DNA of 64,000 nt from Chloropicon primus (Eukaryota), in the NCBI GenBank assembly GCA_023205875.1, contig CP060759.1:868001-932000 (forward strand), read 5' to 3'. Position numbers and translations under genes: made by a program. Below, piece after piece: positions 35,714 to 64,000 of this stretch. The stretch's first letter is position 1. Every line of letters starts with the position of its first letter. The notes below the pieces were generated by a model. It searched no databases and had not been told where the DNA came from. It saw nothing but the letters and a program-made list of their open reading frames with translations.

Positions 35714-35979
35714 GGGTGCTAGAATCGGGGTGGCACTTCGTGCGCGGGCGGGGTGGGGGCATTCTCCGCCCGGGTCGGTGCCCGGGAAAGGGACAAGGGG
35801 GTAGACGGGTGTGCCGTTGGTTTTTCACACAAACATCTTTAGAAGTAGAACAAGGAGGAGGTCGTTGGGGCATCTCATTTTTCAACAAATAAAACATGCT
35901 ACAACATAATACAATACTGCTCCTTGCTGACGCGCTTGGCCAGGCTGACCGTGGCCGCGGTTTAGGTTTCTGGTGGTTC

Positions 35980-36486
35980 TCAGAATATTCCAAACCTCCG
36001 CGGGGCTGGCTTCCCGCTCCGCCCTTCGAGCTCCTCCAGCCTGCTCAGCATCTCCCTCTGCTTCAGCTCGAGGTTGGCAATGATCGCCATCTGGTGTTCT
36101 TGCAGCCTCATCCTCTTCTCCTCCTTTTCTACCCTCCGCTTCTCTTTGTTCACCCTCTTCAGCTCGTCCCTCCTGTTGCTCCGGTCGTACTCGTACAGCA
36201 GCAGGCCCCCACCAACAGTGTAGATAAAACTTTCGGAGAAGAACTTCCCCGCCAGGTTCAGCGCCCGCTCGTCGTTCAGAGGCGATATCTCTGCGCCCTT
36301 CTTCTTCTCCTGGCCCCTTGCTGCCCTGTTGATCCTCACGTTCCACCTGTGGAGGACTTGAGCCCAATCGATCGCCCGCTGCCTCACCACCGGGTGGGAG
36401 AGCATGTAATCCTGGAAGACGTACGCCAAAGGCTTCGACGCCGTCTTCACCGTCATGGTGAACACTTTGATCGCAAGCTGCGCCAT
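35980..36486 (-). CDS. OPA3: OPA3-like protein
   Basis: VKTASKPLA, PLNDERALNLAGKFFSESFIYTVGGGLLLYEY and a coiled-coil tail. Confidence 0.85.
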   Translation of the reverse strand: MAQLAIKVFTMTVKTASKPLAYVFQDYMLSHPVVRQRAIDWAQVLHRWNVRINRAARGQEKKKGAEISPLNDERALNLAGKFFSESFIYTVGGGLLLYEYDRSNRRDELKRVNKEKRRVEKEEKRMRLQEHQMAIIANLELKQREMLSRLEELEGRSGKPAPRRFGIF

Positions 36487-36822
36487 CACAACCCCCGCAC
36501 CAGCCCCCTCCACACACCGTCCTCAACCAAGGCCACCACCAGGCTCCAATGCAATCCAAACCAAACCAAACCCGTTGCCTCCCTCTCCACCAACCCCCTT
36601 CTCTCTCTCGCCACCTCCGCCACTCCAGACGGCGGCAAACTCGTCGACTCCGAGCCTTGCCCCTCCCTTGCCTCGTCCCCACCGTCCTCCGCTTCGGGAC
36701 CGGGACGACGAACTCCGCTTCGACACGACCACCTTCGCTCCGCTCCTCGACAGACAGAGAGAGAGCGCGCGCGCGAGGGTGGTGGTGGTCGTGGGGAGGC
36801 AAAGGGCGGAAGGGGGGGGAGG

Positions 36823-45000: not shown

Positions 45001-47866
45001 CAAACGACCACGAGCGCACCATGTCGTTCAGGGCAACGGGGTCGAGCATCAACTGGTAAGAAGCAATGTGGGACGGGTCTCTCTGGCGCAGGTCGTTGCC
45101 GAGGATCACCAGCTTTGAGTTGCCATCCTGGCAGCTCTTTGAGATGAAATTGGAGATCCTTTTGGAGACTGGCTCTCTGCCTACTTGGATGATGCACTCC
45201 GGCTGCAGGTACGTGCTCGCCTCGGCGTCCAAGAGTATGTGGTCCAAGTTGTAAATGACGGTGGCTTTGGAATCCATTTTGCCTGACCCGAGCTTCAGAC
45301 CCGAAGATATGTCCGGTACAAGGGGCCACCCCAGTCTCTGGGCGGTCTCTATCAGCGCCAGGTTCTCTGACGCATTGGTGGAGGTGCCCACAATGATCAG
45401 ACCCTTTTTGCACTTTGAAACCGTGTCCATGAAATCCTCCCACGGCGCGAAATTCGTGCGACCCGACTCTCCCACAATCATGTTCGTCGTGTAAGGGAGG
45501 CCGCCGTCCGCCCACGCCCTGATCTTCCCATCCAGAACCCCCCTGTCCCACTCCTCGACGATCGGCGCGAGAGGCTCCCTGTACTGAAAGTTCAAGTGCA
45601 CCGGGCCAGGCAGGTTGTGAGTCGCGTATCTGTACGCCGTGGAGAGATTCGTCAGCAGCACGTCGCTCAAAGCGAGTTCTGGGGTCGGGGCCGGAAAGTT
45701 TCTGAACCAACGGGGGAACTTGCCGTAAATGTGCATCTGGTCTATCGTTTGGTTTGCCCCCGTGCCTTGGAGCTCAGCAGGCCTATCTGCTGTCAAGACA
45801 AGGAGGGGCACATTGGACTCACTCGCCTCGACGACAGCGGGCAGCAAATTCGCCACAGCGGTGCCCGAGGTCGTGATCACAGCCGCGGGCACCCCCTTCC
45901 CTTTGCCGATTCCGAGGGCGAAGAAGCCCAGGGATCTTTCGTCTATGCACGTGATCACCTCGGCCCTGGGGTGGTTCGCTGCCGCCAACACGAGCGGCGT
46001 GGATCTGCTTCCGGGAGCGATGCAAAAGTACTTCACACCGAGCCTGCAAAGCTCTTCCACGACAAGGAAGGCAGACAGAGCATTCGCGTTCGGGAAGCTC
46101 TCCAAGGCGAGCTTGCCTTGCCGCACGATCTGCGAGAACTGCTGCACCTTCAAGTCAAGCTCCTTCCACTCCAGGTCCGGCTTCGAGCCGTCCACGATCC
46201 CGACCCCAGCGTACATCACCAAATCGTTCTCGTTCCCCCTCTCCGGCTTGTTCTGCACGAGCGCGGATCTGATCGCGACCGCGAATTCTGAGCTCGACCC
46301 GGACATCCACCCAAAAGGCCCCGAATAGAGCCCCCTGTCAAAGCTCTCCATCGAAGCCAAGGCCTCCACGGACTCCTCGCAGGGGTACCCGGCCACTGCG
46401 GGCGTAGGGTGCAGCGCGGAAAGGAAGTGAAAGTCGTTCTTGCCCCTTGCAATCTTCCCAGACAACCTCCCGTACAGGTGCTGCACGTTGACGTGCTTCA
46501 AGACCTGCTTCTCTGCTTCGATCTCAACTTCGGTGCACAGGGACTCCAGGGCCTGCTTGATCGCGTCGCGCACAACAATGAACTCGTTGTGCTCCTTCTC
46601 TGACGTCAGGAGGTCCTTTGTCACCGAGGCGTCCTTTGACACCCGCGTGGTCGCGGCCACCGCCTCGCTGACGAGGCGGCCGCCGGCCCTCGCGTACAGG
46701 CGCTCCGGGGTGTTCCCAAAGAAGGCGCTGCCGCCGTCCAAAAGCATGCAGAACTGGTAGCCTTTCCTGTCCTGGTCTTGCAGGCACGACAGCATGTGCA
46801 AGGCGTCTACGGGCTGCCTGCAGGTGACCTTGGATCTCCTCGCGAGAACGAGCTTGCTCATCCTTCCCAAGACGTCGTTCACCAAGGGGTCCCACTCCTC
46901 CTCCGTCGGGTCGTGGGTGGCCTCGGAGGCCTCCAAGTGCACCGGTGCCCTGCCGCTGGCCTTGACGCCCCTCAGCCTGCTCAGGACCGCCCGCCCTTTC
47001 GACAGAGCGCCGTCGATGGAGTCTATCCTCTCCCCCTCGGTCCTCTGAGGGAGGTTATCCCAAGCGATGTTGCAGGCCAGCGTCGAGTGAGACGGCGTCG
47101 TCCGCAGCTCTACCGATGGAATCACAAAGGTGTACGAGCCGAACTCCTCCCACTCCTCTGAGGGCGTCTGGGTCGGATCGAATCGGATTCCCCCAAAGGC
47201 CCTGACCGCGTCCCCCCCCTCGCTCAGGAACCGGCTTATCCTGTCGTAAGATTCCAGATCGAAGGGTGATCCCGGCCGCCCCTGCCAGAGGCAAGTGGAC
47301 CCCACGCAGCCCACCTCGTGGTCCGCCCCCCCTCCGGCCCCCTCCGCCAAGTCGTCCAGCTTTCCCCCGGCAGTTTGCAGGCCCTCGCCGAACGTCGAAG
47401 TCTTCGGGGAGAAGTAGATCACGGGGTGCCCCTCCTTCAAGCTCTGGCCCCTGAGCCACCCGATCGTGTCCCCCTCGCGAGGAATCGTGACCTCCAGTCG
47501 GATGACGCCGCTCTCTTCCTCCGGCCGACTCTGCGAGATGTCTCTCAGGGCCTCGGAGAGCTTCTTCGCTCCCTGGTCGAAGCTGGACGCCACCCCGAGC
47601 TCCCTGCGAGCCACGGGGACGGGGCGGGACTCCGGCGAGAGCGCCTCGGCCTCCCGAAAGAAGGTATTGTCCTCGAGCACGCCGACATTAGGCGCCGAGG
47701 CCCGCGCGGGCAAGGGCCTCTTCCCAGAGGAGGAGACCAGTCTGCTGCTGCTGGCGAGCGAGCGACACCTCCTCGACGGCGACGAGGCCGGGCCTCGAGG
47801 AGGCGCGAGTCCCTCCTTCCCCCTCGCGGTGCTCGCCCTCAGGTGTGACGCCTTCCGCTCCATCAT
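42020..47866 (-). CDS. PHYLLO: PHYLLO, fused MenF-MenD-MenC-MenH phylloquinone biosynthesis protein
   Basis: ICS (GNTPERL, LHPTPAV, EFAVAIRS); MenD (PGSRSTPL, DERSLGF, TTSGTAVAN, NRGSSGIDG); MenC (KLKVGR, DANRAW, FIEEP, ALDE); MenH (HGFLG, YSMGAR, GHCVHLE). Confidence 0.95.
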   Translation of the reverse strand: MMERKASHLRASTARGKEGLAPPRGPASSPSRRCRSLASSSRLVSSSGKRPLPARASAPNVGVLEDNTFFREAEALSPESRPVPVARRELGVASSFDQGAKKLSEALRDISQSRPEEESGVIRLEVTIPREGDTIGWLRGQSLKEGHPVIYFSPKTSTFGEGLQTAGGKLDDLAEGAGGGADHEVGCVGSTCLWQGRPGSPFDLESYDRISRFLSEGGDAVRAFGGIRFDPTQTPSEEWEEFGSYTFVIPSVELRTTPSHSTLACNIAWDNLPQRTEGERIDSIDGALSKGRAVLSRLRGVKASGRAPVHLEASEATHDPTEEEWDPLVNDVLGRMSKLVLARRSKVTCRQPVDALHMLSCLQDQDRKGYQFCMLLDGGSAFFGNTPERLYARAGGRLVSEAVAATTRVSKDASVTKDLLTSEKEHNEFIVVRDAIKQALESLCTEVEIEAEKQVLKHVNVQHLYGRLSGKIARGKNDFHFLSALHPTPAVAGYPCEESVEALASMESFDRGLYSGPFGWMSGSSSEFAVAIRSALVQNKPERGNENDLVMYAGVGIVDGSKPDLEWKELDLKVQQFSQIVRQGKLALESFPNANALSAFLVVEELCRLGVKYFCIAPGSRSTPLVLAAANHPRAEVITCIDERSLGFFALGIGKGKGVPAAVITTSGTAVANLLPAVVEASESNVPLLVLTADRPAELQGTGANQTIDQMHIYGKFPRWFRNFPAPTPELALSDVLLTNLSTAYRYATHNLPGPVHLNFQYREPLAPIVEEWDRGVLDGKIRAWADGGLPYTTNMIVGESGRTNFAPWEDFMDTVSKCKKGLIIVGTSTNASENLALIETAQRLGWPLVPDISSGLKLGSGKMDSKATVIYNLDHILLDAEASTYLQPECIIQVGREPVSKRISNFISKSCQDGNSKLVILGNDLRQRDPSHIASYQLMLDPVALNDMVRSWSFEHPEFDPSGCKIYCKYILELDHIVSNSVNSCFERADTMSEPLIARVVSEIIPRSNALFLGNSMPIRDMEMSSANRNAEFDGGLVALGSNRGSSGIDGVTSSAAGFAESLGSPVTLLIGDVSFVHDSNGLNLLSGPSSSKRAPLTIIVVNNRGGRIFEMLPVAQQIDSSVLDSCFITDPEADVSSLCRAYRIPHQLVSSKEDMIEALRKSWRSKVHNVIEISVDPQASTEFRNFVKERVKEDLSVFTSQQVFLASHMWSLGPACIEIDRLVCEKMSYPLAKELTTSSSMAKEMVKVSIQASHKDAGKVVTSFGEVSPLENLHRETLKEAQSQLACVSSILPGKRLPLSVAALDGSLERWFSLIGIEPDSLLPSVRFGLESALLDLLSSALGYSVMGGAGQGEEVEGALQQRGGLVHVIGLLSLLSSDVATVVEDAERLVSRGYRGIKLKVGRSEVEKDIEMVRLISQRFGSDLVLRCDANRAWTLDEALTFADGVKGLEIEFIEEPVKDLADLEAFTRAQTIPVALDEHLSDRLRDTAAADVRERATELMSPLSGSLDAVVLKPSVLGSVEKFKSLVDLCVDLGVKPIVSSAFDSSVGLRSLSELALYVDSVRGARFEGRPPLLHGLGTIAWNIHEPREGRLFLEEATSLPFEGWARSLVIDVEKQAGPHKALPFSSSNSIVLYDSLKCELDHDQSIHEGFMKLYKCTNGSLNGHVHASAGVAPSLAFVHGFLGDVHDWLPLISSTASTNDCYAVSLPGHSSCTFECVKSMALQNTFAFASRSMSELLDQSSLHTPILVAYSMGARIALDMVLSSPEKYSGLMIISSSPGIKDEAERENRAIKDLMLSAQIRETRVESFLDSWYKQPLFESFSRSPQFMTTVSKRAKLHESSGLADAMGGLSPGLQDSLWPKLRDLEIPLCVVCGELDPKYVSISEEMCELARESPHLQPQDVQLHVVSGAGHCVHLEAPQAVAPILSNFVSYVERSETTAYES

Positions 47867-48980: not shown

Positions 48981-51587
48981 TCAGCCTTGTCCCGAGGACG
49001 ACGACCGCCTCAGCTCGGAGGCGGCGGAGACGACCTCCTCAATGCTCTCGAAGGTCGCCCTGCCGATCAGCAGCCTCTTGCCGAACTTGAGGGCTCTCTT
49101 CTCGCAGTCCGCTCGAACCTTCGCGTCCTCGATTCTATCCATGTCTTGTACGTGTGCAACCCCGACGATCCTCCTGATCATCTTGGCCCCCGCAAACCCG
49201 AGGGTGTCCTCGAAGACCTGCCTCATGAAGGTCTCCTGGCAGATCCTCCTCGCGCCGTCGCTGTCCTGGACCTTTGCGCCGAACAAAAGCTCGGGATACG
49301 CGGAGCTATCGCACTTCTCGTTCCACATCTTCAGGAACTTGTTCTGAAACAGGTTCCAGACGTCCCTGCAGCAAGCGATGAGCCAAGCCCTGTGCTCCTC
49401 CCTCTCCCCTTGCCCGGTCTCGTGGCCGTCCGACGCAAAGAAAGCGAGGAAGAGGTTCGAGATGAAGGCCCCGATGTCGAAACCCATCGGCCCGTAAAAG
49501 GCAAACTCCGGGTCGATGACGCTCACCGTGTCTTGGGTGACCATGACGCTCCCGGTGTGAAGGTCTCCGTGCAACAGGGCTTGGGCTTGCGTGCAGAACT
49601 TGGCCTTCAGCTCCGAGATCGCATCCTTCGCTGCGGCGTCCCTTCGAAGGTCGGCGACGTCGGCGTCCAGGTAGGGCGAGTTGTGCCTGTTGTGAAACGC
49701 GTCCCCGTAAGGATCGGTGAAGATGACCTGCTCGGTCAGCTCGCACATCGGGCTGTTGTCGGCGTAGAACGCCAGCTTTTTCCTGTACTCCGCGCTTGGC
49801 AAGGCGAAGAGGGAGCTCTTGAACAGGGTCGCCGCCAGGAACGTGGACATGCAGTCCGCCAGGTGAAGGTAAACGACCCCGTCGATCAGACCGTACCTCA
49901 GGATGATGTTTGGCGGGGCGAGGTACTCCATGAAGATCGCGGAGACCTTCTTGTCGAACTTGTAGACTTGGGGCACGTGGTCGGGGCACATCTCGTGCCC
50001 GTCCACGAGAGCGGTCGTCTCGAACATGGCCCGGTCCGCCGTCAGGGGCCACGACTCGCCGATGCACCTCACGTAGGGCAGAGCCTGCTTCACCACCATT
50101 CCTCGGCCCTCGCCGCCCTCCACGATGAAGACAAAGTTGATGTTCCCGTCGCCGACTTCCTTGACGGACCAGGTGCTGGCGTCCCCGGGAATCTTGGCCT
50201 TGAGGTCAGGGTCCCCCTGGATGTACCTCTTCAGCTCTTCCTCGGTGAAGCCTTTGGCGCCAGACAGGGGCATCGGGAGCTCCGAGCCACCCCGGCCCTC
50301 GCGAGCGCTGTCGATGAAGCCCTTCATGTCGAACTCCCCGGAAGAGTTTGGCCACACCGTCCCGTACTCGGTGATGATGCCAGCGATGAGGGGGGCGGGG
50401 GTCACGTCGAAGGCGGGGTTCCAGACGCCGATGCCGTCGGCGACAACCCGCTTGCCGTCCGGAAGGTGGGTCATCTCCTCGGAGCTCCGCTCCTCGATCG
50501 GAATCCCCGAGCCGTTCGGGAGGGACAGGTCAACGGTCGAAACGGGAGCCGCGACGAAGAAAGGGACGTTGGAATACGAAGCCGAGACGGCCAGGGAGTA
50601 CGTTCCGATCTTGTTGGCCACGTCCCCGTTCGCAGCGATTCGGTCCGCACCCAGGACGACCGCGTCCACTTCCCCCTTGCTCATCAGGTAAGGCGCGGTC
50701 GAGTCCGTCACGAGCGTGGAGGGTATCTTGTCGTGCACCAGCTCGTACGCCGTCAGCCTCGCCCCCTGGTTGTACGGCCGGGTCTCCGTGCAGTACGCCC
50801 TCTCGAGGACCTTGTCGCTGTGCAGGGACCTCACGACGCCGAGCGCGGTTCCGTACGAGGACGTGGCCAGCGCTCCCGTGTTGCAGTGGGTGAGAACCCT
50901 CAAGTTCGTGTCCTTGGACCTGCGCTTCCTGCAGGCCTCCTGGATGGCCTTGGAGCCAAAGCTTCCCATGCTGAGGTTGCCTTCGGTGTCCGTCCTCATG
51001 AGCTCCTCCGACGCGGCGATGACCACCTCGGCGAGGTCCTTCGAGGTCGCGCCGGGCCCGGCTCGTGCCACCCGCTGCTTCAGGTCGCCGCAAGCGATCG
51101 CCAAGTTCACCGCGGTCGGTCTGCTGGTGACCAGGTAGGTCAGCTTCTCGTTGATCCTCGACGCCATCTCCGAGGGGTCTGGGAAAGGAGAACCATAATG
51201 TTGTTAATATATGTAATCCGAAGTCAGTCCGTCGGGTCAGGCCCGGGGGGGGGGGATGCTTACCTTGGGGGAGGTCAGCGTTCGCGAGCTCGACCGCGAG
51301 GGACAGAACTCCCGCAATCGCTATCGCGGGGGCGCCCCTCACCACCATCGAATTGATCATCGTCCAACCATCTAAAGCGCAAATTAGAGAAAGAGAAAGA
51401 GAAACACACTTTTAGTTCGCGAGCGAACGAACACGCGCTTGAGATCTATACCTTTTGAGTCCCTGACGTCGAGGTACGTCTTCTCGTAAGGGATGACCCT
51501 TTGGTCCAGGAGCTTGAGCGTGGCACGACCCGATGCACCGTCCCTCTCGTATATGATCGCCCGCAGGCCGTGGTCCTCTGGCGCCAT
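48981..51587 (-). CDS. Fused methylthioribose-1-phosphate isomerase (MtnA/MRI1) + methylthioribose kinase (MtnK); introns 51372-51451 and 51179-51263
   Basis: LLDQR, MVVRGAPAI, SRPTAVNL, THCNTGALAT, ETRPYNQG, NKIGTY, NPAFDVTP, then in frame EVGDGNINFVF, KQALPY, HGDLHTGS, IDPEFAFYGP, RRIVGVAHV. Confidence 0.93.
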
Positions 51588-51731: not shown

Positions 51732-51849
51732 TCTAAGTTTGAGTTTCGTCGTTAGTAGGGAGAGGTCCATCCCGTTTCGTCGTTAGTAGGGAGAGGTCCA
51801 TCCCGTTTTCTATTTTTAGAGGTCTCCCTACTAATCGACGAAACTTAGA
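51732..51849. repeat. 31-bp tandem duplication plus inverted copy
   Basis: TTTCGTCGTTAGTAGGGAGAGGTCCATCCCG at 51744 and 51775; inverted TCTCCCTACTAATCGACGAAACTTAGA at 51823-51849. Confidence 0.85.
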
Positions 51850-51892
51850 ATGATTCTAGGGGGAACTTGAAGCGTCACATGACGATGTACGG

Positions 51893-51955
51893 TGGAATTC
51901 TCCCCCTTCTGGAATTCTCCCTTCTGGAATTCTCCCCGTGGAATTCTCCCTTCTG
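51893..51955. repeat. Four tandem ~15-18 bp TGGAATTCTCCC units
   Basis: TGGAATTCTCCC(C)(TTC) x4 upstream of the MYB gene. Confidence 0.9.
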
Positions 51956-52031: not shown

Positions 52032-53021
52032 ATGGCGCCTCAGTCGTCAAAGACAAAGCACAAAGGCAGATGGAGTGCGGAGGAAGACAGGAAGCTCACC
52101 AGCGTCGTATCATTGTTTGGGAAGGGAAATTGGTCCAAAATCTCGCGCTATTTTAATCGTACTGGCAAGCAGTGTCGAGAGAGATGGCTGAATAAGCTTC
52201 AAATCGGCCTGAAGAAAGGGTGGACGAAGAAAGATGACCTGAGACTGATCGAGTTGCATCGACGATATGGCAACAAATGGGCCCTCATCAGCAAAGGTTT
52301 CGAAGGACAGAAGACGGAGAACATGGTTAAGAACCGATTTAATTCGACCCTGCGTAGGTTACAAGGCCGTAAGTCGAGTCGTCAGCGTAACGACGGACCA
52401 CTTTCCTTGTATACACAGTCACTTCTCACGAAGACTGATGTCAAATCGGAGGAAACCAACGACACAGCTCCAAGCTCAGACATGAGTGACTCAGTTTGCA
52501 CTGCACAAGAGTTTCTTCTTGATGACAACGGTGGCACATCAGCGGAGTGGGACCTTTTCGGTGACTTCTATCACCTTGAAAGCAGTCCTTATCAACCACC
52601 GTTCATGCAATCAGAGCAAGAGTTTTTTGAGTTTGCTACTGAAGGAGAGCTGTTTGGAGAGAAATCAGTCGTTGTATCGCGAAAGAGACACCACAGATAT
52701 GGACAATTCTTCCTGCTCTCTTCACAGTTGGAGTTCAATGAAGCAATTAAGATGTTGTTGAACAGAGGGACTGTGAGCTATTTTGAAGTTGCTTTGGATG
52801 CAGCGGCAGTTTCGGCAGACCCAGACAAAGTCGACGCGATTTTATCTGCAGTCCACAACCTTTTGCCATCAGTTCATCAGCTAAAGACTTGCGATTTAGC
52901 GGCCTTTTTGAGCGAGGCAGTCTTGAAATGTGCCTTGATTACTGATGAGAAGGGAAGCTGCTCCAAAGTTCAAAAGTCTTTTCAGGACTCCGTTGCAGAT
53001 GTTATGACCGCGATGTTATGA
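52032..53021 (+). CDS. R2R3-type MYB transcription factor
   Basis: KGRWSAEEDRKL..GNWSKIS..RTGKQCRERWLNKL and WTKKDDLRLIELHRRYGNKWALIS..TENMVKNRFN; ATG at 52032 after a (GA)n leader. Confidence 0.9.
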   Translation: MAPQSSKTKHKGRWSAEEDRKLTSVVSLFGKGNWSKISRYFNRTGKQCRERWLNKLQIGLKKGWTKKDDLRLIELHRRYGNKWALISKGFEGQKTENMVKNRFNSTLRRLQGRKSSRQRNDGPLSLYTQSLLTKTDVKSEETNDTAPSSDMSDSVCTAQEFLLDDNGGTSAEWDLFGDFYHLESSPYQPPFMQSEQEFFEFATEGELFGEKSVVVSRKRHHRYGQFFLLSSQLEFNEAIKMLLNRGTVSYFEVALDAAAVSADPDKVDAILSAVHNLLPSVHQLKTCDLAAFLSEAVLKCALITDEKGSCSKVQKSFQDSVADVMTAML

Positions 53022-53237
53022 CCGCGACCGCTATGTTGTTTCCTGTTCCTCCCTCCCGCGATTCCCTTAAAGCCATTTGATTTTAAAACGTAAACTAAAA
53101 AAATATTAAGTTACACCCGAAAAAAACCGAAAAAAACGCCTACCCGTTTCCGTTCAATTTTGCTGGAAGGGAAGAAGACTCATACGCTAGGTGGACGGCT
53201 GCGCACACGACGCACAGTATTGTGCGAAGTGTAAGTC

Positions 53238-56200
53238 ATGCCAGAACCAAAGGTTAGGCAAGCTGTCCGTGGCGATGCAATAAATGTTCGCAAAATCGAT
53301 CACCTCACCTGGCCTGAGAATCTGTGGCTTAAAGACAAGGACTTTCAGTTCTACTTCGAATCGTATCTCGAGGGTCAGTTCGTAGTGGAGTGTGGCGACA
53401 GAGTCGTTGGCTGTCTATTCACTCAAAGACTTGACAACGAGTCAACTCTTCTTGATGATGGAAAGACAAGCTCAGACTTTACATCTTTGCACCAGGGCGA
53501 GGGCAAGGTGATTCAGTTGATAAGGATATCTGTCCTCCCCCAGTACGAAGGTTTAGGTTTAAGCCATGCCCTTATCGAAGGATCATTGGAACACTTAAAA
53601 AAACAACAGGGATCAATTGAAAAGGTTGTTGCAGTGACAAGGTGTTCTCAGTTCAAAGCAGCTGGCGCATACCCATACGATGACTACGTCTATAGCGGTC
53701 GCGATCCCACGATAGCTTTCCATGTTGGTAGGGGTGCTGAAGTTGTGAAGATACTTCACAACTTTCGGCTTGAAGACACTCAAAATGATGGACACGGTGT
53801 TCTTATTCGATACAGCTTGAAGACAAACACCGATTCCAACTTTGACCAGTCAACTAGTCAGCTTCAGTTTAGTCGTGATGACGCCGAATCTCGTATCAAA
53901 GACGCCGTTCGGAGAATAGCACAATCTTCTGAAGAGCCTGCTCTAGATGAACCATTGATAGAGTATGGTTTAGATTCCATTGACTTTAGCGGTTTAAAAG
54001 CCAGCTTGGAAAACATCTTTTCCATCAGCTTGGAAGCTACCTTCTTGTTTAGCTATCCAACCGTCCAACAGATCGCGGCCTACGTGGTAGATCAAAATAA
54101 AAATACCGGTAGCAAAGCCAAAGCTTTGGAAGTTGAACTCCCTGATGGATCCTTGACAAAAAGGAGCCCCAATTACTCAGAAGCTATTTGGATAATAGAC
54201 ACTGCTGAAAGACTTCCCGCTGCCATTGAAGTTGGCGGATTTAAAGAGGCAGTTTCTCACGTCCCTTTGAACCGGTGGGACCCCACCGGTTTTGAAGAAG
54301 TCATTGCCCAACAAAGTGGTGTCACTTCTGGTTCTTTTGGTATCTTCCTGCACCTTCATGAGTGTGATATTCATGGGATATCACAGAAAGAGGCTCTTCA
54401 GACCGACCCACAGCAATTGCTCATCATAGAAAATGCTCAGAATCTGAAACGTGCTTCTTGTCCAAAGCACGACGGGGAAATCGGTGTAGCTGCTGCAGTG
54501 TCGAACTTTGACTTTGCAGTACTTCAACAGAAGATCAAGCCGGTTGAGTCGCAGACACATAGCACCCTCATTGGTTCAGACCTGTCTGTCTGCTGCGGGA
54601 AAGTCTCGTACCTTTTGAATTTCAATGGGCCAAGTTATGTGGTGAATACAGCATGCTCCTCTTCTCTTGTGGCTACAAATGCAGCGATGCACTGTCTCAG
54701 GAATTTTGAGTGTCAGCTTCACTTCGTTCTCTCTGCAAGCACTATTCTATCCCCCCACGTAATGGTGGCTTACGCCAAAATGGGAATGCTGTCTATCGAT
54801 GGGAGGTGTCAATCCTTCGACCAGCAAGCGAACGGATACGTGCGAGCAGAAGCAAGCGTTGGTGTAAACCTGGGAATGGCCTCTGGTTCAGGAGTTGCCA
54901 TTGTTGCATCATCCGTACAACAAGATGGAAGGAGCGCAGGACTCACAGCACCAAATGGAATTGCTCAGCAAAAGCTACTGCTTCGCACTTCAATGGATGC
55001 TGATGTGCCTTTGAGTGACATTCAACACCAGGAGATGCACGCAACTGGTACACCGCTCGGCGACCCCATTGAGTACCAAGCATTCAAGCAAGCTCTTAGA
55101 TCGTCGTCACATGAAATGGGCTTTATCATATCAGTGAGTGGCACGAAAGCCATAGCAGGGCACGGGGAGCCATGTGCAGGGCTTTCGAGTACTCTCCGAA
55201 TCATCAAATCATCATTGAAAGCAAAGAAAATAGTCAACAACCGATTGAGATCAATGAACAAACACTTTGGCCCTGATATGATGGGGAGCAACCTCATTTT
55301 TCCTACTGTGAATGGATCAGCAGCACTCAGTAGCTCATACGCAGGTATCAATTCATTTGCATTCCAAGGCACGATCGCCCGCCTTTTGCTCAAATTTGAT
55401 AAAGGCAATGAAAGACCAGCGACACGCAAGGCACTCTGCAAGAAGCTCATCTCCTTCAAATGCGTTTCATATTGTAGCAGCAAAGTATTGGTAAGCAGCG
55501 GATCAAAAAAACTTTGCTTACATCTGAAACCAAAATTTGGACAGTTCACAATAGAAGGAAAAAGAGTCTTAACATTTGCCCAGATGTACTCATATCTTCA
55601 AATCGGCTACAATGATCTTTGCCAAGAGACCACCAAACAGAAAGCTGTAACGGCCGATATGGTTCAAACAAGAGTCATGCACATCGACTACAGGCAACAT
55701 CAAATGATGCAATGTACGGTGGACACAGTGACCGGACAAGTAGAACTCCAATCCCAAGCAGAAGGGAAAAGTCACAAAACCTGGAATCTCCAAGCCATAT
55801 GGAAGAAACCAGTCAAACACTTGCCAGAGCGCCAAACCACACACCAAGATCAAAACGAGTGGAACAAAGGCATCATGGGTATAATGCACCACAATCAAGC
55901 TGCACACACAGCCAATGCAATTGCAACAGTCGCCAAAACATCAAATGACCTCTATGATTACACCGTCAACCCAGCTGTGGGCGACGCAAATCTACAGCTT
56001 GGTGCCGTGGAAAGCGTGATTCGTTTGGCGAGCCAAGACAATGCTAGTCAAGAAACGCAAGTACCAACGGGTTGCCATGCCTATTACATGGGCGACCAGT
56101 CAGATGCTCCAGCAGCATACACGGCAGTCTGTCAGAATGGCTCCCAAGCTGGCATCTCAAGCCATAGACTAAAAAGTCTATGTGAAGAGATCAACTGTGC

Positions 56201-59200
56201 CTCAGTTCTCAATTTGCAAACCAAAGCAGCATTTAAATTGCAAAGTGCTTTGAATGCAGCCAACAGCCAACAGAAAGTGCAAGAAAAGGACATGCTCTTA
56301 TCGGCTTTGGTGTGGTCAGCCTGCTATGCGACCCCTCTGGACTGCGCTGCTCATCAAAATGCAATAATCGCAGGATCAAGGGACGCACAAGAGAATGTGC
56401 TTCTCGTGAAACTTGGAGACGCGCAATCCAATTTGGAGCATCCTCTCAAGATTGCATGCAGAAATGCAGGAGCTCTCTATTCATCATCTCATGTGGATAG
56501 TCCTGAAATGCAAGAGTACCTGACAAACACCTCAAAGTCGGTCCACGTTGTTTGCCTTGTCTCGCACCAAGCAAATGTTGCAAAGCAACTTGTAGGCCTT
56601 GCCAACCTTGTCAAAGCGGTGAACAAGTCAAACATGGAATCACCTAGTATCACTGTGGTTTTCTTGGATTCACAAACGACCATGAACGTCCAACACAACA
56701 CCTCAAAAGCATTGTGGGGAGCATGCAGGACGATGAGAATGGAGTACCCATCCTTGCAATTGACAACCATTCAAATGGATGCACACATGGACAAGAGTCA
56801 GGCAGCTCTTTACCTCTTGTCAGAAATCCAAAACAAACATTCAACTGAAAAGGAAGTCATGTACAAGAATGCGACACGATACATCAATACCATTGTGGAG
56901 AAGTATCCTTCTGCATCACAGCATCTCTCCCTCAATCCACATCTGGAAAAGCTCCAGAGAGGATCATATGTTATCACAGGAGGTCTTGGAGGTCTGGGTC
57001 TTGTGACCGCGCAACTTCTTGCAGATATGGGAGCGACAAGCATATCTCTCCTCTCAAGAAGTGGCATCATTCAGCGCACGGACCAAAACCTTAATGCCAT
57101 TCTCGACAAAGTAAGAGAGAAAGCCAATGTGGAGGTTATCGCATGTGATGTGAGCAAAGAAGATCATGTGCGCAATCTCTACACAAAGCAAAACCATCCT
57201 TGTGTGGGAATTATACATGCTGCCGGTGTCTTACGAGATGGCCTTGCTGCAAATCTCAACCATACTCAGGTCCAACAGGTATTTGACCCAAAGATCAGTG
57301 GCGCTTTGCATTTGCATCACAACACACTCCTGCAGCCATTGCAGGTATGCATCATGTTCTCCTCCATAGTGTCACTCTATGGAAACATTGGTCAGACCTC
57401 CTACAGTGCAGCAAATACCTATCTTGATACTTTGGCTGCTCTAAGGCAAAACCAAGGCCTTCCTGCGGTCAGCATACAATGGCCAGCAATATCTGGCATT
57501 GGCATGTGGGAAGGTCTATCAAGTGTCCACAAGAAAACATTTGAATTCAACCTTCCCGTAAAGGCCGTTATATCGTGCCTTCAAAATCTTGTGTCAAAGA
57601 AATCCTTCACAATCACAACCGTGACGATTTTACCAAGGTGGATGATCTACGGAACCAGGGAAAAGAACAAAGCACACATGGCAGCAAAGGCGGATCCAAA
57701 TGAAATCCAGCGGCAGCCAACAAGCGGAAGAAGCCAGAGCGTCAAATTCACATCTGTAGCTGTGTTGACTTCCCAAGTGCAAAATACAATTGAGCAAGCA
57801 GTCATAGATACTATTGGAGAAACCATTGACACGGAAAGTCCTCTCATGGAAGCAGGAGTCGACTCGCTTGCTTCATCAGAGCTTATCAACAAGATCAATG
57901 ATGACATGGGAACCTCTTTGGGGCCCACAATCTTGTTCGACTATCCAACAATTCAGGATCTCACACAGCACCTTGTGCAGACCCTCAAAGGACCTGACGC
58001 TACAGATCACGCCATTGAGGCTGTGGAGCGCATCCCAAACCATGATCCAATGCATGCTGTGACAACAACAATGCTGTCTTCTGCTATCAGATATCCAAAC
58101 CATACAAATTCAAACCAAAGGTTCTTGAATGTCCTTAACAACCAGTCCGAGCTTTGCTCAGTCACTCCACTTCAACGGTGGGACCGCATGGATTGGTATT
58201 CCTCACAGGGCTATGGGAACGACATCTATGTGCCCTTTGGATACTGGCTTCCAGACCTCTGGACCTTCCAACCTGATGCACTAAGCATGACTTCCGCAGA
58301 ATCCCTTTATGTGGACCCACAAGGAAGGAAGCTCCTGGAGGTCACATGGGAGGCCATGTACAACACTCCTCTATCTTCAAACAAACATGCCAGAACAAAT
58401 ACAGGTGTTTATGTAGGATGTTGTCAACAGGATTTCCAAAAAAATATCCATCACATGACAGACCCAGGGAAACAAATACTGGCATCCATAAGCTTCCTTT
58501 GTGGTCGTGTTTCTTATGTGATGGGCTTCAAAGGACCATGCATCAGCATAGATACTGCATGTTCCTCCTCGCTTGCAGCAACTCACTTGGGCAGGACAGC
58601 CATTATAGCACATGAATGTGATACAGCAACAATAGCAGGAACAAATATAATGATTGCACCACAAACAACGCAAGCTATTTGCAATTTGCAAGCCCTTGCC
58701 GTGGATGGAAGATGCAAAACCCTTGATGCAACTGCAAATGGATATGGCCGTGCCGAAGCTATTGCTGCCGTAATCATTGCAAATGCAAACGATACACACA
58801 CGAACATGCTCAAAATGCCTGTCAACATCGTTGCATCTTTTGTGAACCAAGATGGAAGATCAAGCAGTCTGACTGCACCAAATGGGCCATCACAGTCAAC
58901 ACTCATCTCATCTGCTTTGAGGCAAGCAAATCTGAAGCCAGAACAAATCAACCATGTTGTCATGCATGGAACAGGAACACCTCTGGGTGACCCAATTGAG
59001 GTTGGTGCCCTGGGACAAGCATTCCATTCAGATGACAAAGTTCATATGCTTGCACTTGCTGCAGTCAAGGTTGCTTTCGGACATACAGAAGGAGCAGCAG
59101 GACTCACGGGCCTACTTAGTGCAATGCAGTCGTGTAGCACGTTATGCATTCAACCGGTTACCGCATGCAGAAACATGAATGTTCATGTGCAGGGTGCAAT

Positions 59201-62200
59201 CAAAGATCATAGAGATGGGCACAAAAGAGTCACTTCTGCAAGGATTCAACAAGGTCCTTGGTCATTCACTTGTGATGAAAACAATGACAAAGCAATCGCA
59301 GGGACAAGCTCGTTTGGCATGAGCGGAGTCAACAGTCACGGGGTTGTTGAAGCAAAACTTGCAGGCCATACTTACAATGCGCAGAGTATTGCATGGAACA
59401 ACAAGCAAGTACTCTTCCCAATGGTTGGGTGTGCATTTGTGAAGGCTTCCTACAAAGCATCTACAAAACAACACCAAGTATTTGCGATTCAAATCAAGGA
59501 CCACAACCTGCTCGACCACATGGTCATGGGGAAATCCATTTTACCAGGTGCAGGATTCATGGAACTGTCATCAGCCTCTGCACGAGCTATGCTCAATCCA
59601 AACGTCTTACGTGATCTCAAACCAGTGCTTGCAAAGATATCAATTCCAGCCCCGATGCAGTTGGAACCAAACAAACATCAAATGATGCAATGTACGGTGG
59701 ACACAGTGACCGGACAAGTAGGACTGAAAAGTCACAAAACCTGGAATCTCCAAGCCATATGGAAGAAACCAGTCAAACACTTGCCAGAGCGCCAAACCAC
59801 ACACCAAGATCAAAACGAGTGGAACAAAGGCATCATGGGTATAATGCACCACAATCAAGCTGCACACACAGCCAATGCAATTGCAACAGTCGCCAAAACA
59901 TCAAATGACCTCTATGATTACACCGTCAACCCAGCTGTGGGCGACGCAAATCTACAGCTTGGTGCCGTGGAAAGCGTGATTCGTTTGGCGAGCCAAGACA
60001 ATGCTAGTCAAGAAACGCAAGTACCAACGGGTTGCCATGCCTATTACATGGGCGACCAGTCAGATGCTCCAGCAGCATACACGGCAGTCTGTCAGAATGG
60101 CTCCCAAGCTGGCATCTCAAGCCATAGACTAAAAAGTCTATGTGAAGAGATCAACTGTGCCTCAGTTCTCAATTTGCAAACCAAAGCAGCATTTAAATTG
60201 CAAAGTGCTTTGAATGCAGCCAACAGCCAACAGAAAGTGCAAGAAAAGGACATGCTCTTATCGGCTTTGGTGTGGTCAGCCTGCTATGCGACCCCTCTGG
60301 ACTGCGCTGCTCATCAAAATGCAATAATCGCAGGATCAAGGGACGCACAAGAGAATGTGCTTCTCGTGAAACTTGGAGACGCGCAATCCAATTTGGAGCA
60401 TCCTCTCAAGATTGCATGCAGAAATGCAGGAGCTCTCTATTCATCATCTCATGTGGATAGTCCTGAAATGCAAGAGTACCTGACAAACACCTCAAAGTCG
60501 GTCCACGTTGTTTGCCTTGTCTCGCACCAAGCAAATGTTGCAAAGCAACTTGTAGGCCTTGCCAACCTTGTCAAAGCGGTGAACAAGTCAAACATGGAAT
60601 CACCTAGTATCACTGTGGTTTTCTTGGATTCACAAACGACCATGAACGTCCAACACAACACCTCAAAAGCATTGTGGGGAGCATGCAGGACGATGAGAAT
60701 GGAGTACCCATCCTTGCAATTGACAACCATTCAAATGGATGCACACATGGACAAGAGTCAGGCAGCTCTTTACCTCTTGTCAGAAATCCAAAACAAACAT
60801 TCAACTGAAAAGGAAGTCATGTACAAGAATGCGACACGATACATCAATACCATTGTGGAGAAGTATCCTTCTGCATCACAGCATCTCTCCCTCAATCCAC
60901 ATCTGGAAAAGCTCCAGAGAGGATCATATGTTATCACAGGAGGTCTTGGAGGTCTGGGCCTTGTGACCGCGCAACTTCTTGCAGATATGGGAGCGACAAG
61001 CATATCTCTCCTCTCAAGAAGTGGCATCATTCAGCGCACGGACCAAAACCTTAATGCCATTCTCGACAAAGTAAGAGAGAAAGCCAATGTGGAGGTTATC
61101 GCATGTGATGTGAGCAAAGAAGATCATGTGCGCAATCTCTACACAAAGCAAAACCATCCTTGTGTGGGAATTATACATGCTGCCGGTGTCTTACGAGATG
61201 GCCTTGCTGCAAATCTCAACCATACTCAGGTCCAACAGGTATTTGACCCAAAGATCAGTGGCGCTTTGCATTTGCATCACAACACACTCCTGCAGCCATT
61301 GCAGGTATGCATCATGTTCTCCTCCATAGCTTCACTCTATGGAAACATTGGTCAGACCTCCTACAGTGCAGCAAATACCTATCTTGATACTTTGGCTGCT
61401 CTAAGGCAAAACCAAGGCCTTCCTGCGGTCAGCATACAATGGCCAGCAATATCTGGCATTGGCATGTGGGAAGGTCTATCAAGTGTCCACAAGAAAACAA
61501 CACCGTTCACGCTGTCTGTCGAGGGAGCTATCACATCTCTCAATAAGATTCTGAAGGACCTTTCATCCTTCACAATCACAACCGTGACGATTTTACCAAG
61601 GTGGATGATCTACGGAACCAGGGAAAAGAACAAAGCACACATGGCAGCAAAGGCGGATCCAAATGAAATCCAGCGGCAGCCAACAAGCGGAAGAAGCCAG
61701 AGCGTCAAATTCACATCTGTAGCTGTGTTGACTTCCCAAGTGCAAAATACAATTGAGCAAGCAGTCATAGATACTATTGGAGAAACCATTGACACGGAAA
61801 GTCCTCTCATGGAAGCAGGAGTCGACTCGCTTGCTTCATCAGAGCTTATCAACAAGATCAATGATGACATGGGAACCTCTTTGGGGCCCACAATCTTGTT
61901 CGACTATCCAACAATTCAGGATCTCACACAGCACCTTGTGCAGACCCTCAAAGGACCTGACGCTACAGATCACGCCATTGAGGCTGTGGAGCGCATCCCA
62001 AACCATGATCCAATGCATGCTGTGACAACAACAATGCTGTCTTCTGCTATCAGATATCCAAACCATACAAATTCAAACCAAAGGTTCTTGAATGTCCTTA
62101 ACAACCAGTCCGAGCTTTGCGCAGTCACTCCACTTCAACGGTGGGACCGCATGGATTGGTATTCCTCACAGGGCTATGGGAACGACATCTATGTGCCCTT

Positions 62201-64000
62201 TGGATACTGGCTTCCAGACCTCTGGACCTTCCAACCTGATGCACTAAGCATGACTTCCGCAGAATCCCTTTATGTGGACCCACAAGGAAGGAAGCTCCTG
62301 GAGGTCACATGGGAGGCCATGTACAACACTCCTCTATCTTCAAACAAACATGCCAGAACAAATACAGGCGTTTATGTAGGATGTATGTACACAGAGTACC
62401 CACATATCCTGAAGGGGGCAAACATGGCAAACAATGCTGGTACAGGTACTGGAAGCGGCATTAGCTTCCTTTGTGGTCGTGTTTCTTATGTGATGGGCTT
62501 CAAAGGACCATGCATCAGCATAGATACTGCATGTTCCTCCTCCCTTGCAGCAACTCACTTGGGCAGGACAGCCATTATAGCACATGAATGTGATACAGCA
62601 ACAATAGCAGGAACAAATATAATGATTGCACCACAAACAACCCAAGGTGTTTGCAATTTGCAAGCCCTTGCCGTGGATGGAAGATGCAAAACCCTTGATG
62701 CAACTGCAAATGGATATGGCCGTGCCGAAGCTATTGCTGCCGTAATCATTGCAAATGCAAACGATACACACACGAACATGCTCAAAATGCCTGTCAACAT
62801 CGTTGCATCTTTTGTGAACCAAGATGGAAGATCAAGCAGTCTGACTGCACCAAATGGGCCATCACAGTCAACACTCATCTCATCTGCTTTGAGGCAAGCA
62901 AATCTGAAGCCAGAACAAATCAACCATGTTGTCATGCATGGAACAGGAACACCTCTGGGTGACCCAATTGAGGTTGGTGCCCTGGGACAAGCATTCCATT
63001 CAGATGACAAAGTTCATATGCTTGCACTTGCTGCAGTCAAGGTTGCTTTCGGACATACAGAAGGAGCAGCAGGACTCACGGGCCTACTTAGTGCAATGCA
63101 GTCGTGTAGCACGTTATGCATTCAACCGGTTACCGCATGCAGAAACATGAATGTTCATGTGCAGGGTGCAATCAAAGATCATAGAGATGGGCACAAAAGA
63201 GTCACTTCTGCAAGGATTCAACAAGGTCCTTGGTCATTCACTTGTGATGAAAACAATGACAAAGCAATCGCAGGGACAAGCTCGTTTGGCATGAGCGGAG
63301 TCAACAGTCACGGGGTTGTTGAAGCAAAACTTGCAGGCCATACTTACAATGCGCAGAGTATTGCATGGAACAACAAGCAAGTACTCTTCCCAATGGTTGG
63401 GTGTGCATTTGTGAAGGCTTCCTACAAAGCATCTACAAAACAACACCAAGTATTTGCGATTCAAATCAAGGACCACAACCTTCTGAGCTACATGGTCATG
63501 GGGAAATCCATTTTACCAGGTGCAGGATTCATGGAACTGTCATCAGCCTCTGCACGAGCTATGCTTAATCCAAACGTCTTACGTGATCTCAAACCAGTGC
63601 TTGCAAAGATATCAATTCCAGCCCCGATGCAGTTGGAACCAAACAAACATCAAATGATGCAATGTACGGTGGACACAGTGACCGGACAAGTAGGACTGAA
63701 AAGTCACAAAACCTGGAATCTCCAAGCCATATGGAAGAAACCAGTCAAACACTTGCCAGAGCGCCAAACCACACACCAAGATCAAAACGAGTGGAACAAA
63801 GGCATCATGGGTATAATGCACCACAATCAAGCTGCACACACAGCCAATGCAATTGCAACAGTCGCCAAAACATCAAATGACCTCTATGATTACACCGTCA
63901 ACCCAGCTGTGGGCGACGCAAATCTACAGCTTGGTGCCGTGGAAAGCGTGATTCGTTTGGCGAGCCAAGACAATGCTAGTCAAGAAACGCAAGTACCAAC
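53238..64000 (+). CDS. Giant modular trans-AT type I polyketide synthase, 3'-partial: GNAT-ACP-KS-DH0-KR-ACP-KS-DH-KR-ACP-KS-DH0-...
   Basis: My translation from ATG 53238; all checked motifs lie in one frame: GNAT VVAVTR..AFH; ACP GLDS (53976); KS NTACSSS (54654), HATGT (55038), GHGE (55161); KR TGGLGGLG, LRD (57231), YSAAN (57402); ACP GVDS (57864, 61827); KS DTACSSS (58560, 62532); DH HxxxGxxxxP (59517); no AT domain between KS and DH. Confidence 0.93.
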   Translation, partial: MPEPKVRQAVRGDAINVRKIDHLTWPENLWLKDKDFQFYFESYLEGQFVVECGDRVVGCLFTQRLDNESTLLDDGKTSSDFTSLHQGEGKVIQLIRISVLPQYEGLGLSHALIEGSLEHLKKQQGSIEKVVAVTRCSQFKAAGAYPYDDYVYSGRDPTIAFHVGRGAEVVKILHNFRLEDTQNDGHGVLIRYSLKTNTDSNFDQSTSQLQFSRDDAESRIKDAVRRIAQSSEEPALDEPLIEYGLDSIDFSGLKASLENIFSISLEATFLFSYPTVQQIAAYVVDQNKNTGSKAKALEVELPDGSLTKRSPNYSEAIWIIDTAERLPAAIEVGGFKEAVSHVPLNRWDPTGFEEVIAQQSGVTSGSFGIFLHLHECDIHGISQKEALQTDPQQLLIIENAQNLKRASCPKHDGEIGVAAAVSNFDFAVLQQKIKPVESQTHSTLIGSDLSVCCGKVSYLLNFNGPSYVVNTACSSSLVATNAAMHCLRNFECQLHFVLSASTILSPHVMVAYAKMGMLSIDGRCQSFDQQANGYVRAEASVGVNLGMASGSGVAIVASSVQQDGRSAGLTAPNGIAQQKLLLRTSMDADVPLSDIQHQEMHATGTPLGDPIEYQAFKQALRSSSHEMGFIISVSGTKAIAGHGEPCAGLSSTLRIIKSSLKAKKIVNNRLRSMNKHFGPDMMGSNLIFPTVNGSAALSSSYAGINSFAFQGTIARLLLKFDKGNERPATRKALCKKLISFKCVSYCSSKVLVSSGSKKLCLHLKPKFGQFTIEGKRVLTFAQMYSYLQIGYNDLCQETTKQKAVTADMVQTRVMHIDYRQHQMMQCTVDTVTGQVELQSQAEGKSHKTWNLQAIWKKPVKHLPERQTTHQDQNEWNKGIMGIMHHNQAAHTANAIATVAKTSNDLYDYTVNPAVGDANLQLGAVESVIRLASQDNASQETQVPTGCHAYYMGDQSDAPAAYTAVCQNGSQAGISSHRLKSLCEEINCASVLNLQTKAAFKLQSALNAANSQQKVQEKDMLLSALVWSACYATPLDCAAHQNAIIAGSRDAQENVLLVKLGDAQSNLEHPLKIACRNAGALYSSSHVDSPEMQEYLTNTSKSVHVVCLVSHQANVAKQLVGLANLVKAVNKSNMESPSITVVFLDSQTTMNVQHNTSKALWGACRTMRMEYPSLQLTTIQMDAHMDKSQAALYLLSEIQNKHSTEKEVMYKNATRYINTIVEKYPSASQHLSLNPHLEKLQRGSYVITGGLGGLGLVTAQLLADMGATSISLLSRSGIIQRTDQNLNAILDKVREKANVEVIACDVSKEDHVRNLYTKQNHPCVGIIHAAGVLRDGLAANLNHTQVQQVFDPKISGALHLHHNTLLQPLQVCIMFSSIVSLYGNIGQTSYSAANTYLDTLAALRQNQGLPAVSIQWPAISGIGMWEGLSSVHKKTFEFNLPVKAVISCLQNLVSKKSFTITTVTILPRWMIYGTREKNKAHMAAKADPNEIQRQPTSGRSQSVKFTSVAVLTSQVQNTIEQAVIDTIGETIDTESPLMEAGVDSLASSELINKINDDMGTSLGPTILFDYPTIQDLTQHLVQTLKGPDATDHAIEAVERIPNHDPMHAVTTTMLSSAIRYPNHTNSNQRFLNVLNNQSELCSVTPLQRWDRMDWYSSQGYGNDIYVPFGYWLPDLWTFQPDALSMTSAESLYVDPQGRKLLEVTWEAMYNTPLSSNKHARTNTGVYVGCCQQDFQKNIHHMTDPGKQILASISFLCGRVSYVMGFKGPCISIDTACSSSLAATHLGRTAIIAHECDTATIAGTNIMIAPQTTQAICNLQALAVDGRCKTLDATANGYGRAEAIAAVIIANANDTHTNMLKMPVNIVASFVNQDGRSSSLTAPNGPSQSTLISSALRQANLKPEQINHVVMHGTGTPLGDPIEVGALGQAFHSDDKVHMLALAAVKVAFGHTEGAAGLTGLLSAMQSCSTLCIQPVTACRNMNVHVQGAIKDHRDGHKRVTSARIQQGPWSFTCDENNDKAIAGTSSFGMSGVNSHGVVEAKLAGHTYNAQSIAWNNKQVLFPMVGCAFVKASYKASTKQHQVFAIQIKDHNLLDHMVMGKSILPGAGFMELSSASARAMLNPNVLRDLKPVLAKISIPAPMQLEPNKHQMMQCTVDTVTGQVGLKSHKTWNLQAIWKKPVKHLPERQTTHQDQNEWNKGIMGIMHHNQAAHTANAIATVAKTSNDLYDYTVNPAVGDANLQLGAVESVIRLASQDNASQETQVPTGCHAYYMGDQSDAPAAYTAVCQNGSQAGISSHRLKSLCEEINCASVLNLQTKAAFKLQSALNAANSQQKVQEKDMLLSALVWSACYATPLDCAAHQNAIIAGSRDAQENVLLVKLGDAQSNLEHPLKIACRNAGALYSSSHVDSPEMQEYLTNTSKSVHVVCLVSHQANVAKQLVGLANLVKAVNKSNMESPSITVVFLDSQTTMNVQHNTSKALWGACRTMRMEYPSLQLTTIQMDAHMDKSQAALYLLSEIQNKHSTEKEVMYKNATRYINTIVEKYPSASQHLSLNPHLEKLQRGSYVITGGLGGLGLVTAQLLADMGATSISLLSRSGIIQRTDQNLNAILDKVREKANVEVIACDVSKEDHVRNLYTKQNHPCVGIIHAAGVLRDGLAANLNHTQVQQVFDPKISGALHLHHNTLLQPLQVCIMFSSIASLYGNIGQTSYSAANTYLDTLAALRQNQGLPAVSIQWPAISGIGMWEGLSSVHKKTTPFTLSVEGAITSLNKILKDLSSFTITTVTILPRWMIYGTREKNKAHMAAKADPNEIQRQPTSGRSQSVKFTSVAVLTSQVQNTIEQAVIDTIGETIDTESPLMEAGVDSLASSELINKINDDMGTSLGPTILFDYPTIQDLTQHLVQTLKGPDATDHAIEAVERIPNHDPMHAVTTTMLSSAIRYPNHTNSNQRFLNVLNNQSELCAVTPLQRWDRMDWYSSQGYGNDIYVPFGYWLPDLWTFQPDALSMTSAESLYVDPQGRKLLEVTWEAMYNTPLSSNKHARTNTGVYVGCMYTEYPHILKGANMANNAGTGTGSGISFLCGRVSYVMGFKGPCISIDTACSSSLAATHLGRTAIIAHECDTATIAGTNIMIAPQTTQGVCNLQALAVDGRCKTLDATANGYGRAEAIAAVIIANANDTHTNMLKMPVNIVASFVNQDGRSSSLTAPNGPSQSTLISSALRQANLKPEQINHVVMHGTGTPLGDPIEVGALGQAFHSDDKVHMLALAAVKVAFGHTEGAAGLTGLLSAMQSCSTLCIQPVTACRNMNVHVQGAIKDHRDGHKRVTSARIQQGPWSFTCDENNDKAIAGTSSFGMSGVNSHGVVEAKLAGHTYNAQSIAWNNKQVLFPMVGCAFVKASYKASTKQHQVFAIQIKDHNLLSYMVMGKSILPGAGFMELSSASARAMLNPNVLRDLKPVLAKISIPAPMQLEPNKHQMMQCTVDTVTGQVGLKSHKTWNLQAIWKKPVKHLPERQTTHQDQNEWNKGIMGIMHHNQAAHTANAIATVAKTSNDLYDYTVNPAVGDANLQLGAVESVIRLASQDNASQETQVP
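55696..64000 (+). repeat. Tandem ~3.96-3.97 kb near-identical PKS module repeats (2 full copies plus the start of a 3rd)
   Basis: AACATCAAATGATGCAATGTACGGTGGACACAG recurs at ~55696, ~59674 and ~63646; offsets 3960-3978 bp, all multiples of 3; identical short shadow ORFs recur in the track. Confidence 0.97.

Follow-up and report, generated by a model that had tools for sequence, protein, structure and literature searches.

The window, by which we mean the whole stretch of 64,000 nucleotides that was analysed, is gene-dense eukaryotic DNA with a GC content of about 0.55–0.63, which drops to 0.46 in the last part, from about 51.9 kb onwards. The low-GC part carries a gene for a two-repeat Myb protein and, 216 nt 3' of it on the same strand, a large PKS gene. 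The PKS open reading frame begins with the ATG at 53238, shortly after an in-frame TAA (53232–53234), extends over 3,587 codons on the plus strand and is still open at the window end. The features of this region are:

52032..53021, plus strand: gene for a Myb-type transcription factor (Pfam Myb, E 4e-29), in the same low-GC stretch as the PKS
53244..53822, plus strand: CurA-subfamily GNAT-like domain, residues 3–195 (phmmer, profile search, AlphaFold with Foldseek, Pfam)
53637..53639, plus strand: Thr134, equivalent to CurA Thr355, catalytic dyad (CurA alignment; Thr or Ser in 171/171 homologous domains)
53721..53723, plus strand: His162, equivalent to CurA His389, catalytic dyad (CurA alignment; His in 171/171)
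53766..53768, plus strand: Arg177, equivalent to CurA Arg404 (His+15 spacing as in CurA; Arg in 167/171)
53811..53813, plus strand: Tyr192, equivalent to CurA Tyr419 (CurA alignment; Tyr in 170/171)
53874..54095, plus strand: loading ACP, about residues 213–286 (Pfam PP-binding; YGLDS; conserved in the orthologue P0177)
54180..55403, plus strand: KS1, diverged, with Cys473, His601 and His642 present and the tail SFAFQGT
55404..57974, plus strand: rest of module 1, with DH-like region, KR and ACP and no AT (Pfam and motifs)
58065..61937, plus strand: module 2, with KS, DH, KR and ACP (DH His2094; near-copy of its neighbours)
62046..63998, plus strand: module 3, truncated at the end of the window, with KS and DH (DH His replaced by Tyr3418)

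A first-pass annotation had proposed a CurA-type GNAT-like loading domain at the N-terminus of this protein, citing the motifs EKVVAVTRC, DPTIAFHVGRGAEVVKILHNFRLEDTQNDGHGVLIRY and YGLDS. All three are present in the translation, and the family assignment was upheld by phmmer, profile search and predicted structure. Against PDB sequences, phmmer returned CurA (2ree, E 2.9e-28), SxtA (3.8e-24) and GphF (6.8e-18), the best match after these being an N-alpha-acetyltransferase at E 0.038. With a seven-sequence profile the same three proteins scored between E 6e-68 and 8e-54 and the next match 1.7e-4. The Pfam match to Acetyltransf_1 was weak (E 1e-5, residues 22–145), and NCBIfam holds no model for the starter GNAT domain. 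AlphaFold, run on the seven-sequence alignment, modelled the domain with a pLDDT of 90; a single-sequence prediction of the GNAT-ACP didomain reached a pLDDT of 33 and was set aside. The comparison with the CurA structure that the annotation had recommended gave a TM-score of 0.90 and an RMSD of 1.9 Å in Foldseek, and the model matched SxtA and GphF with TM-scores of 0.90 and 0.87, while the acetyltransferases listed reached at most 0.69. Thus, by sequence and by predicted structure, the N-terminal domain is a member of the CurA/SxtA/GphF decarboxylase subfamily. Its identification as a canonical GNAT N-acetyltransferase was rejected because the matches to acetyltransferases are far weaker than those to CurA, SxtA and GphF, in structure as in sequence; in addition, His162 occupies the position where canonical members have Tyr. 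The grouping with ordinary N-acetyltransferases, named beforehand as the outcome that would speak against the assignment, was therefore not observed. Since the GNAT domain begins at residue 3 of the reading frame, there is no space upstream of it for a transit peptide, a methyltransferase or a lid, and none was found there; a loading-methyltransferase profile gave no match to the PKS.

The Thr, His and Arg said to be retained were confirmed as Thr134 (codon at 53637), His162 (53721) and Arg177 (53766). Residue frequencies were counted over 171 homologous domains, from which six near-duplicate rows had first been removed. The roles of the CurA residues T355, H389, R404 and Y419 are given in sections of PMC3701320, according to which Y419 positions the His. 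The His and the Thr are described there, and in parts of bioRxiv 2025.03.07.642089, as essential for decarboxylation in the CurA subfamily. The orthologue P0177, encoded on a 1,153-nt metagenome contig from ENA, is 60% identical over 197 residues, shares the start Met and begins with the same GNAT-ACP-KS arrangement. It keeps all four catalytic-site residues (Thr, His, Arg, Tyr), and at 60% identity their retention speaks for selection on them. C136, D156, G166, D180 and N183, which are invariant in the homologues, are likewise kept in both proteins. The phosphate-binding loop (canonical Q-x-x-G-L-G) deviates, with Ser109 where 168/171 homologues have Gly and Glu104 where 159/171 have Gln. Ala160 takes the place of the CoA-binding Arg387 of CurA, an Arg in 110/171 homologues. 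P0177 has Ser109 and Ala160 as well but retains Gln104; Ser109 is common to these two proteins and one bacterial protein. The residue directly after the catalytic Thr is Arg135 (TRC), as in SxtA and GphF, where CurA has Leu (TLC).

The loading ACP carries its serine at position 247 (codon at 53976). KS1 shares 117 identities in 353 columns with KS2 and scores 220 bits, compared with 326 bits for KS2. A decarboxylating KSQ is told apart from a KS by its active-site residues. Because KS1 keeps Cys-His-His, it does not resemble a KSQ and requires a preformed acyl starter. In module 1 the DH-like region is without the catalytic His motif, the KR Tyr motif is kept and the ACP reads GVDSL. Across the 3,587 residues Pfam recognised three KS, three ACP, two KR and two DH stretches; an acyltransferase in cis gave no Pfam match in these residues, the C-terminal part of the protein lying beyond the window.

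The starter domain of this AT-less eukaryotic line is very likely a functional CurA-type domain. We further consider it likely, with good though not full confidence, that it primes the line with an acetyl starter, formed by decarboxylation of the malonyl group on the adjacent ACP. Acetyl from malonyl-ACP is the simplest reading because no methyltransferase or lid precedes the GNAT. As described in parts of bioRxiv 2025.03.07.642089, PKS GNATs of the subfamily decarboxylate malonyl-, methylmalonyl- or dimethylmalonyl-ACP and do so without acyl transfer, and LynB1, which has only the lid of a methyltransferase, is read likewise as converting malonyl-ACP to acetyl-ACP in the relevant part of PMC10127204. 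In the proposed scheme a separate acyltransferase encoded outside the window would load malonyl onto Ser247 of the holo-ACP, His162 and Thr134 would release CO2 from malonyl-ACP, and Cys473 of KS1 would take over the acetyl group and condense it with malonyl on ACP1. Judged from motifs only, module 1 is predicted to leave a hydroxyl group, its DH being dead, and module 2 to introduce a double bond; for module 3, with a dead DH and a KR beyond the window, a hydroxyl group is probable. The GNAT would stand in for the AMP-ligase loading domain of many other algal PKSs.

The substrate of the same decarboxylase could instead be methylmalonyl-ACP, yielding a propionyl starter as in SxtA, with the methyl group added in trans or supplied via methylmalonyl-CoA. 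We regard this as unlikely, though deserving of consideration in view of Arg135, which is found at this site in SxtA and GphF and in 68/80 homologues with a full methyltransferase, compared with 38/90 without. Neither the protein nor P0177 has a methyltransferase in cis, however, and most algal trans-AT PKSs are without methyltransferases (PMC4661987). The methyltransferase profile found no such domain in 53/170 homologues, some of which may be fragments, and 20 of these 53 also carry the Arg. As a marker of methylating modules Arg135 was rejected: the association (Fisher p 6e-9) was lost under control for kinship, which left five independent pairs with a median p of 1.

A second alternative is the original two-step model of CurA, in which free malonyl-CoA is decarboxylated and the same domain moves the acetyl group to the ACP, making a loading AT dispensable. 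It was described for CurA in 2007, as recounted in a section of PMC3701320, and it would agree with the retention of Arg404, for which a role in S-acetyl transfer has been suggested, as Arg177, and with the lack of a cis-AT in the residues seen. Later work cited in bioRxiv 2025.03.07.642089 reports these enzymes to be without acyl transfer, and the positions contacting CoA are altered here (Ala160, Ser109, Glu104), so that this model appears quite improbable.

It is also very improbable that the GNAT is vestigial or has turned into an amine acyltransferase, with the line primed in another way, for instance through decarboxylation that is spontaneous or carried out by a KS. The long branch of the domain in the tree (see below), the altered phosphate loop, the low score of the diverged KS1 and the Pfam acetyltransferase label could all be read in this way; nevertheless, the catalytic and invariant residues are all kept in two organisms 40% apart, and ordinary acetyltransferases are far weaker matches.

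The loading module was compared with known systems. The GNAT of the curacin A PKS (CurA; PDB 2REE/2REF) shares the fold, 32% sequence identity and equivalents of T355, H389, R404 and Y419, and there too a GNAT-ACP precedes the first KS. It differs in having an adaptor or lid domain, which is lacking in the AT-less eukaryotic PKS; the present domain in turn shows the replacements Arg387 to Ala, loop Gly to Ser and TLC to TRC. Cyanobacterial SxtA (MT-GNAT-ACP-aminotransferase) contains a GNAT of the same subfamily (E 4e-24, TM 0.90), but it has a methyltransferase, makes propionyl and is without KS modules, whereas the present domain supplies a KS line of several modules. In dinoflagellates, nuclear sxtA transcripts code for a GNAT with the W/T/H/R residues, which is ascribed to horizontal transfer (PMC3097229); the subfamily is therefore already known in eukaryotes, a precedent that the first-pass annotation had overlooked. 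GphF (PDB 6MFC) is alike in its fold (TM 0.87) and in its S/T-H-R residues and acts on dimethylmalonyl-ACP (bioRxiv 2025.03.07.642089, in part), while no methyltransferase precedes the domain described here. The loading methyltransferase or lid that marks the MT-GNAT-ACP loading modules of SxtA and GphF is accordingly missing.

Outside the loading module the protein resembles the chlorophyte trans-AT PKSs CrePKS1, OluPKS3 and MccPKS (PMC4661987), which likewise lack a cis-AT and have near-identical duplicated modules and the FQGT tail. Of the 57 algal type I PKSs tabulated in that paper, 15 start with an AMP-dependent ligase and none is listed with a GNAT, although the table may have overlooked weak domains. 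The KS1 tail SFAFQGT also ends a Micromonas PKS in its supplement. FQGT was found in 0/195 KS domains of 125 homologous GNAT-PKSs, with 26 giving no motif call, and the window KS is 28–36% identical to the best-scoring KS of 17 other proteins. P0026, P0056 and P0175 are examples, from public collections, of uncharacterised GNAT-ACP-KS PKSs that, like the present one, have the GNAT at or near the N-terminus and no methyltransferase. They differ in being only about 30–35% identical, P0026 being labelled bacterial, and the KS domains of this set end in motifs of the FGxGG/FGxSG type, never FQGT.

Relatives of the domain were sought in several collections. Word-index searches found mostly bacterial-labelled or unnamed proteins at 26–37% identity and one protein from a eukaryote transcriptome, P0010; a plasmid search added 23 bacterial records, also at 26–37%. 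The full profile search yielded 571 representatives with E-values of 1e-30 or below, the best 150 of which were examined; among these, all relatives other than P0177 were at most 37% identical. Other algal GNAT copies could be present among the profile matches beyond the best 150 of the 571. Pattern scans, which detect close relatives only, found none in JGI metagenomes or viral contigs, and none in prokaryote genomes, where a single 19-residue match was taken as chance. P0039 heads the profile search with 408 bits and was rejected as a close relative, being only 25–27% identical over the GNAT-ACP. P0039, P0010 and P0152 are GNAT-ACP proteins, two of them from eukaryote transcriptomes, with no KS match in the two that were scanned; P0039 has the layout GNAT-ACP-MT-GNAT-ACP, and all three resemble short SxtA forms.

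For the tree, 30 rows were chosen from 172. The phylogeny recommended by the first-pass annotation paired the domain with P0177, but the tree is star-like and yielded neither a donor nor a supported bacterial sister: the pair has no supported sister and stands on a very long stem, measuring 1.76 + 0.22 changes per column, along which function could have drifted. P0010, P0152 and P0039 formed a separate clade (support 100/99), and joining it with the pair was not rejected (p-AU 0.416). A horizontal origin of the GNAT, which the annotation had suggested, is plausible in view of the distribution of its homologues, the sources of about 40 proteins having been seen; ultimately the origin is probably bacterial, no donor being named by the tree. 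The GC content at third codon positions is 0.457 in the GNAT, 0.448 in the whole PKS and 0.517 in the Myb gene, compared with 0.70–0.88 in 14 other open reading frames of the window. Low GC was rejected as a signal of transfer because it extends over the Myb gene and the entire PKS, and since the GNAT does not differ from the PKS as a whole there is no domain-specific compositional sign of transfer. The Myb gene could encode a regulator of the PKS cluster.

As a wider scenario we propose tentatively, and with slightly less than even confidence, that a bacterial GNAT-ACP was grafted horizontally onto a native green-algal trans-AT line, independently of SxtA, replacing a ligase loader, and that it has been kept across oceanic picoalgae. 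The protein would then be the first GNAT-primed modular PKS of the green lineage and its altered phosphate loop would be lineage-specific.

The sequencing runs compared bear on the integrity of the locus. In run X1, possibly the origin of the window sequence, one DNA contig spans the Myb gene, the GNAT and KS1 (52049–55440). Run X3, from another study, covers 53241–53451 and 53475–55440 and behaves as RNA, because an upstream gene shows a spliced joint in it. Run X5 covers the PKS from 53837 on and run X7 is patchy. The Myb gene has no cover in three RNA-like runs, although contigs cannot show absence. Four environmental runs contributed only short pieces at a depth of 2–7, which say nothing on habitat or expression in the wild. 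That a bacterial PKS contig was artificially joined to algal sequence is barely credible: there is indeed a step in GC near 51.9 kb, with about 0.58 before it and 0.46 after it, the PKS gene has no introns and the junction is crossed by no single contig, but the low-GC stretch opens with a eukaryotic Myb gene located on one DNA contig with the GNAT and KS1, the FQGT tail of KS1 is shared with Micromonas and with none of the KS domains of homologous GNAT-PKSs, an RNA-like run in which neighbouring genes are spliced covers the PKS gene, a second database record has the gene on a 1.09 Mb contig, and low-GC PKS regions are reported from a compact green alga (PMC6731263, in part).

GNAT loading domains were also sought in the literature. 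They are not mentioned in the main text of PMC4661987 with respect to algal modular PKSs, in the main text of the PKZILLA preprint, in PMC7073580, or in the main text or PKS table of PMC6731263, and no report of one in a green-algal PKS was found in a search that left subscription journals largely outside. An Amphidinium TeCATe transcript carries a GNAT (PMC8283056). What is described here is therefore a known decarboxylase chemistry with eukaryotic precedent, in a host context that we have not found described. Hardly any products of green-algal type I PKSs are known, and starters selected by ligases are unpredictable (PMC7073580). With a GNAT as loader, the choice of starter is reduced to acetyl (or propionyl), which constrains the product of the assembly line, and the GNAT-ACP is a small, assayable didomain. 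The chemistry, characterised in bacteria and found also in the SxtA of dinoflagellates, is extended to a host that, judging from its gene content, is probably a compact marine green alga. This suggests that loading domains are exchanged among algal assembly lines as they are among bacterial ones.

At the DNA level the later modules share 97.6% identity over 4,353 nt. Despite this identity, the differences between modules in 55696–64000 are gathered in a few patches: a patch at the C-terminal helix of the KR (residues 1435–1455 vs 2755–2776), a KS loop (1729–1750 vs 3050–3074) and the catalytic residue of the DH (H2094 vs Y3418). The modules look like homogenised repeats that retain only specificity patches. 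For the module repeats, run X1 gives contig depths of 316 versus 83, which hints at about three to four collapsed repeat copies. A database version of the protein, P0002 (3,391 residues), has four substitutions and loses the frame after KS3, in the 63376 region (residue 3380), where the window remains open; the discrepancy probably reflects how the repeat was assembled or a difference between alleles of it.

The GC boundary itself (51743–51955), just 5' of the Myb gene, carries a GA microsatellite, four TGGAATTCTCCC-like units and a 31-nt tandem duplication that is perfect and has a 12-nt arm in inverted orientation (51823–51834); none of the sequencing runs compared has a single contig across the repeats at 51.7–52.0 kb. 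The PHYLLO-type fusion at 42020–47866 (minus strand) contains chorismate-binding, TPP, enolase-like and hydrolase domains (Pfam); such fusions are typical of photosynthetic eukaryotes. At 48981–51452 (minus strand) an IF-2B-family domain is fused to a kinase-like domain, likely for methionine salvage, in a gene with two GT-AG introns (51179–51263 and 51372–51451) that are supported by spliced joints. A telomerase reverse transcriptase is encoded in one open reading frame at 35896–40665 (Pfam). The 722-residue protein encoded at 3416–5584 has IS605 OrfB helix-turn-helix and Cas12f1-like TNB domains (Pfam) and is a putative eukaryotic TnpB/Fanzor-like protein. A sialyltransferase, an IS605-like gene and a low-GC PKS region are features of the window that resemble the description of Chloropicon in PMC6731263.
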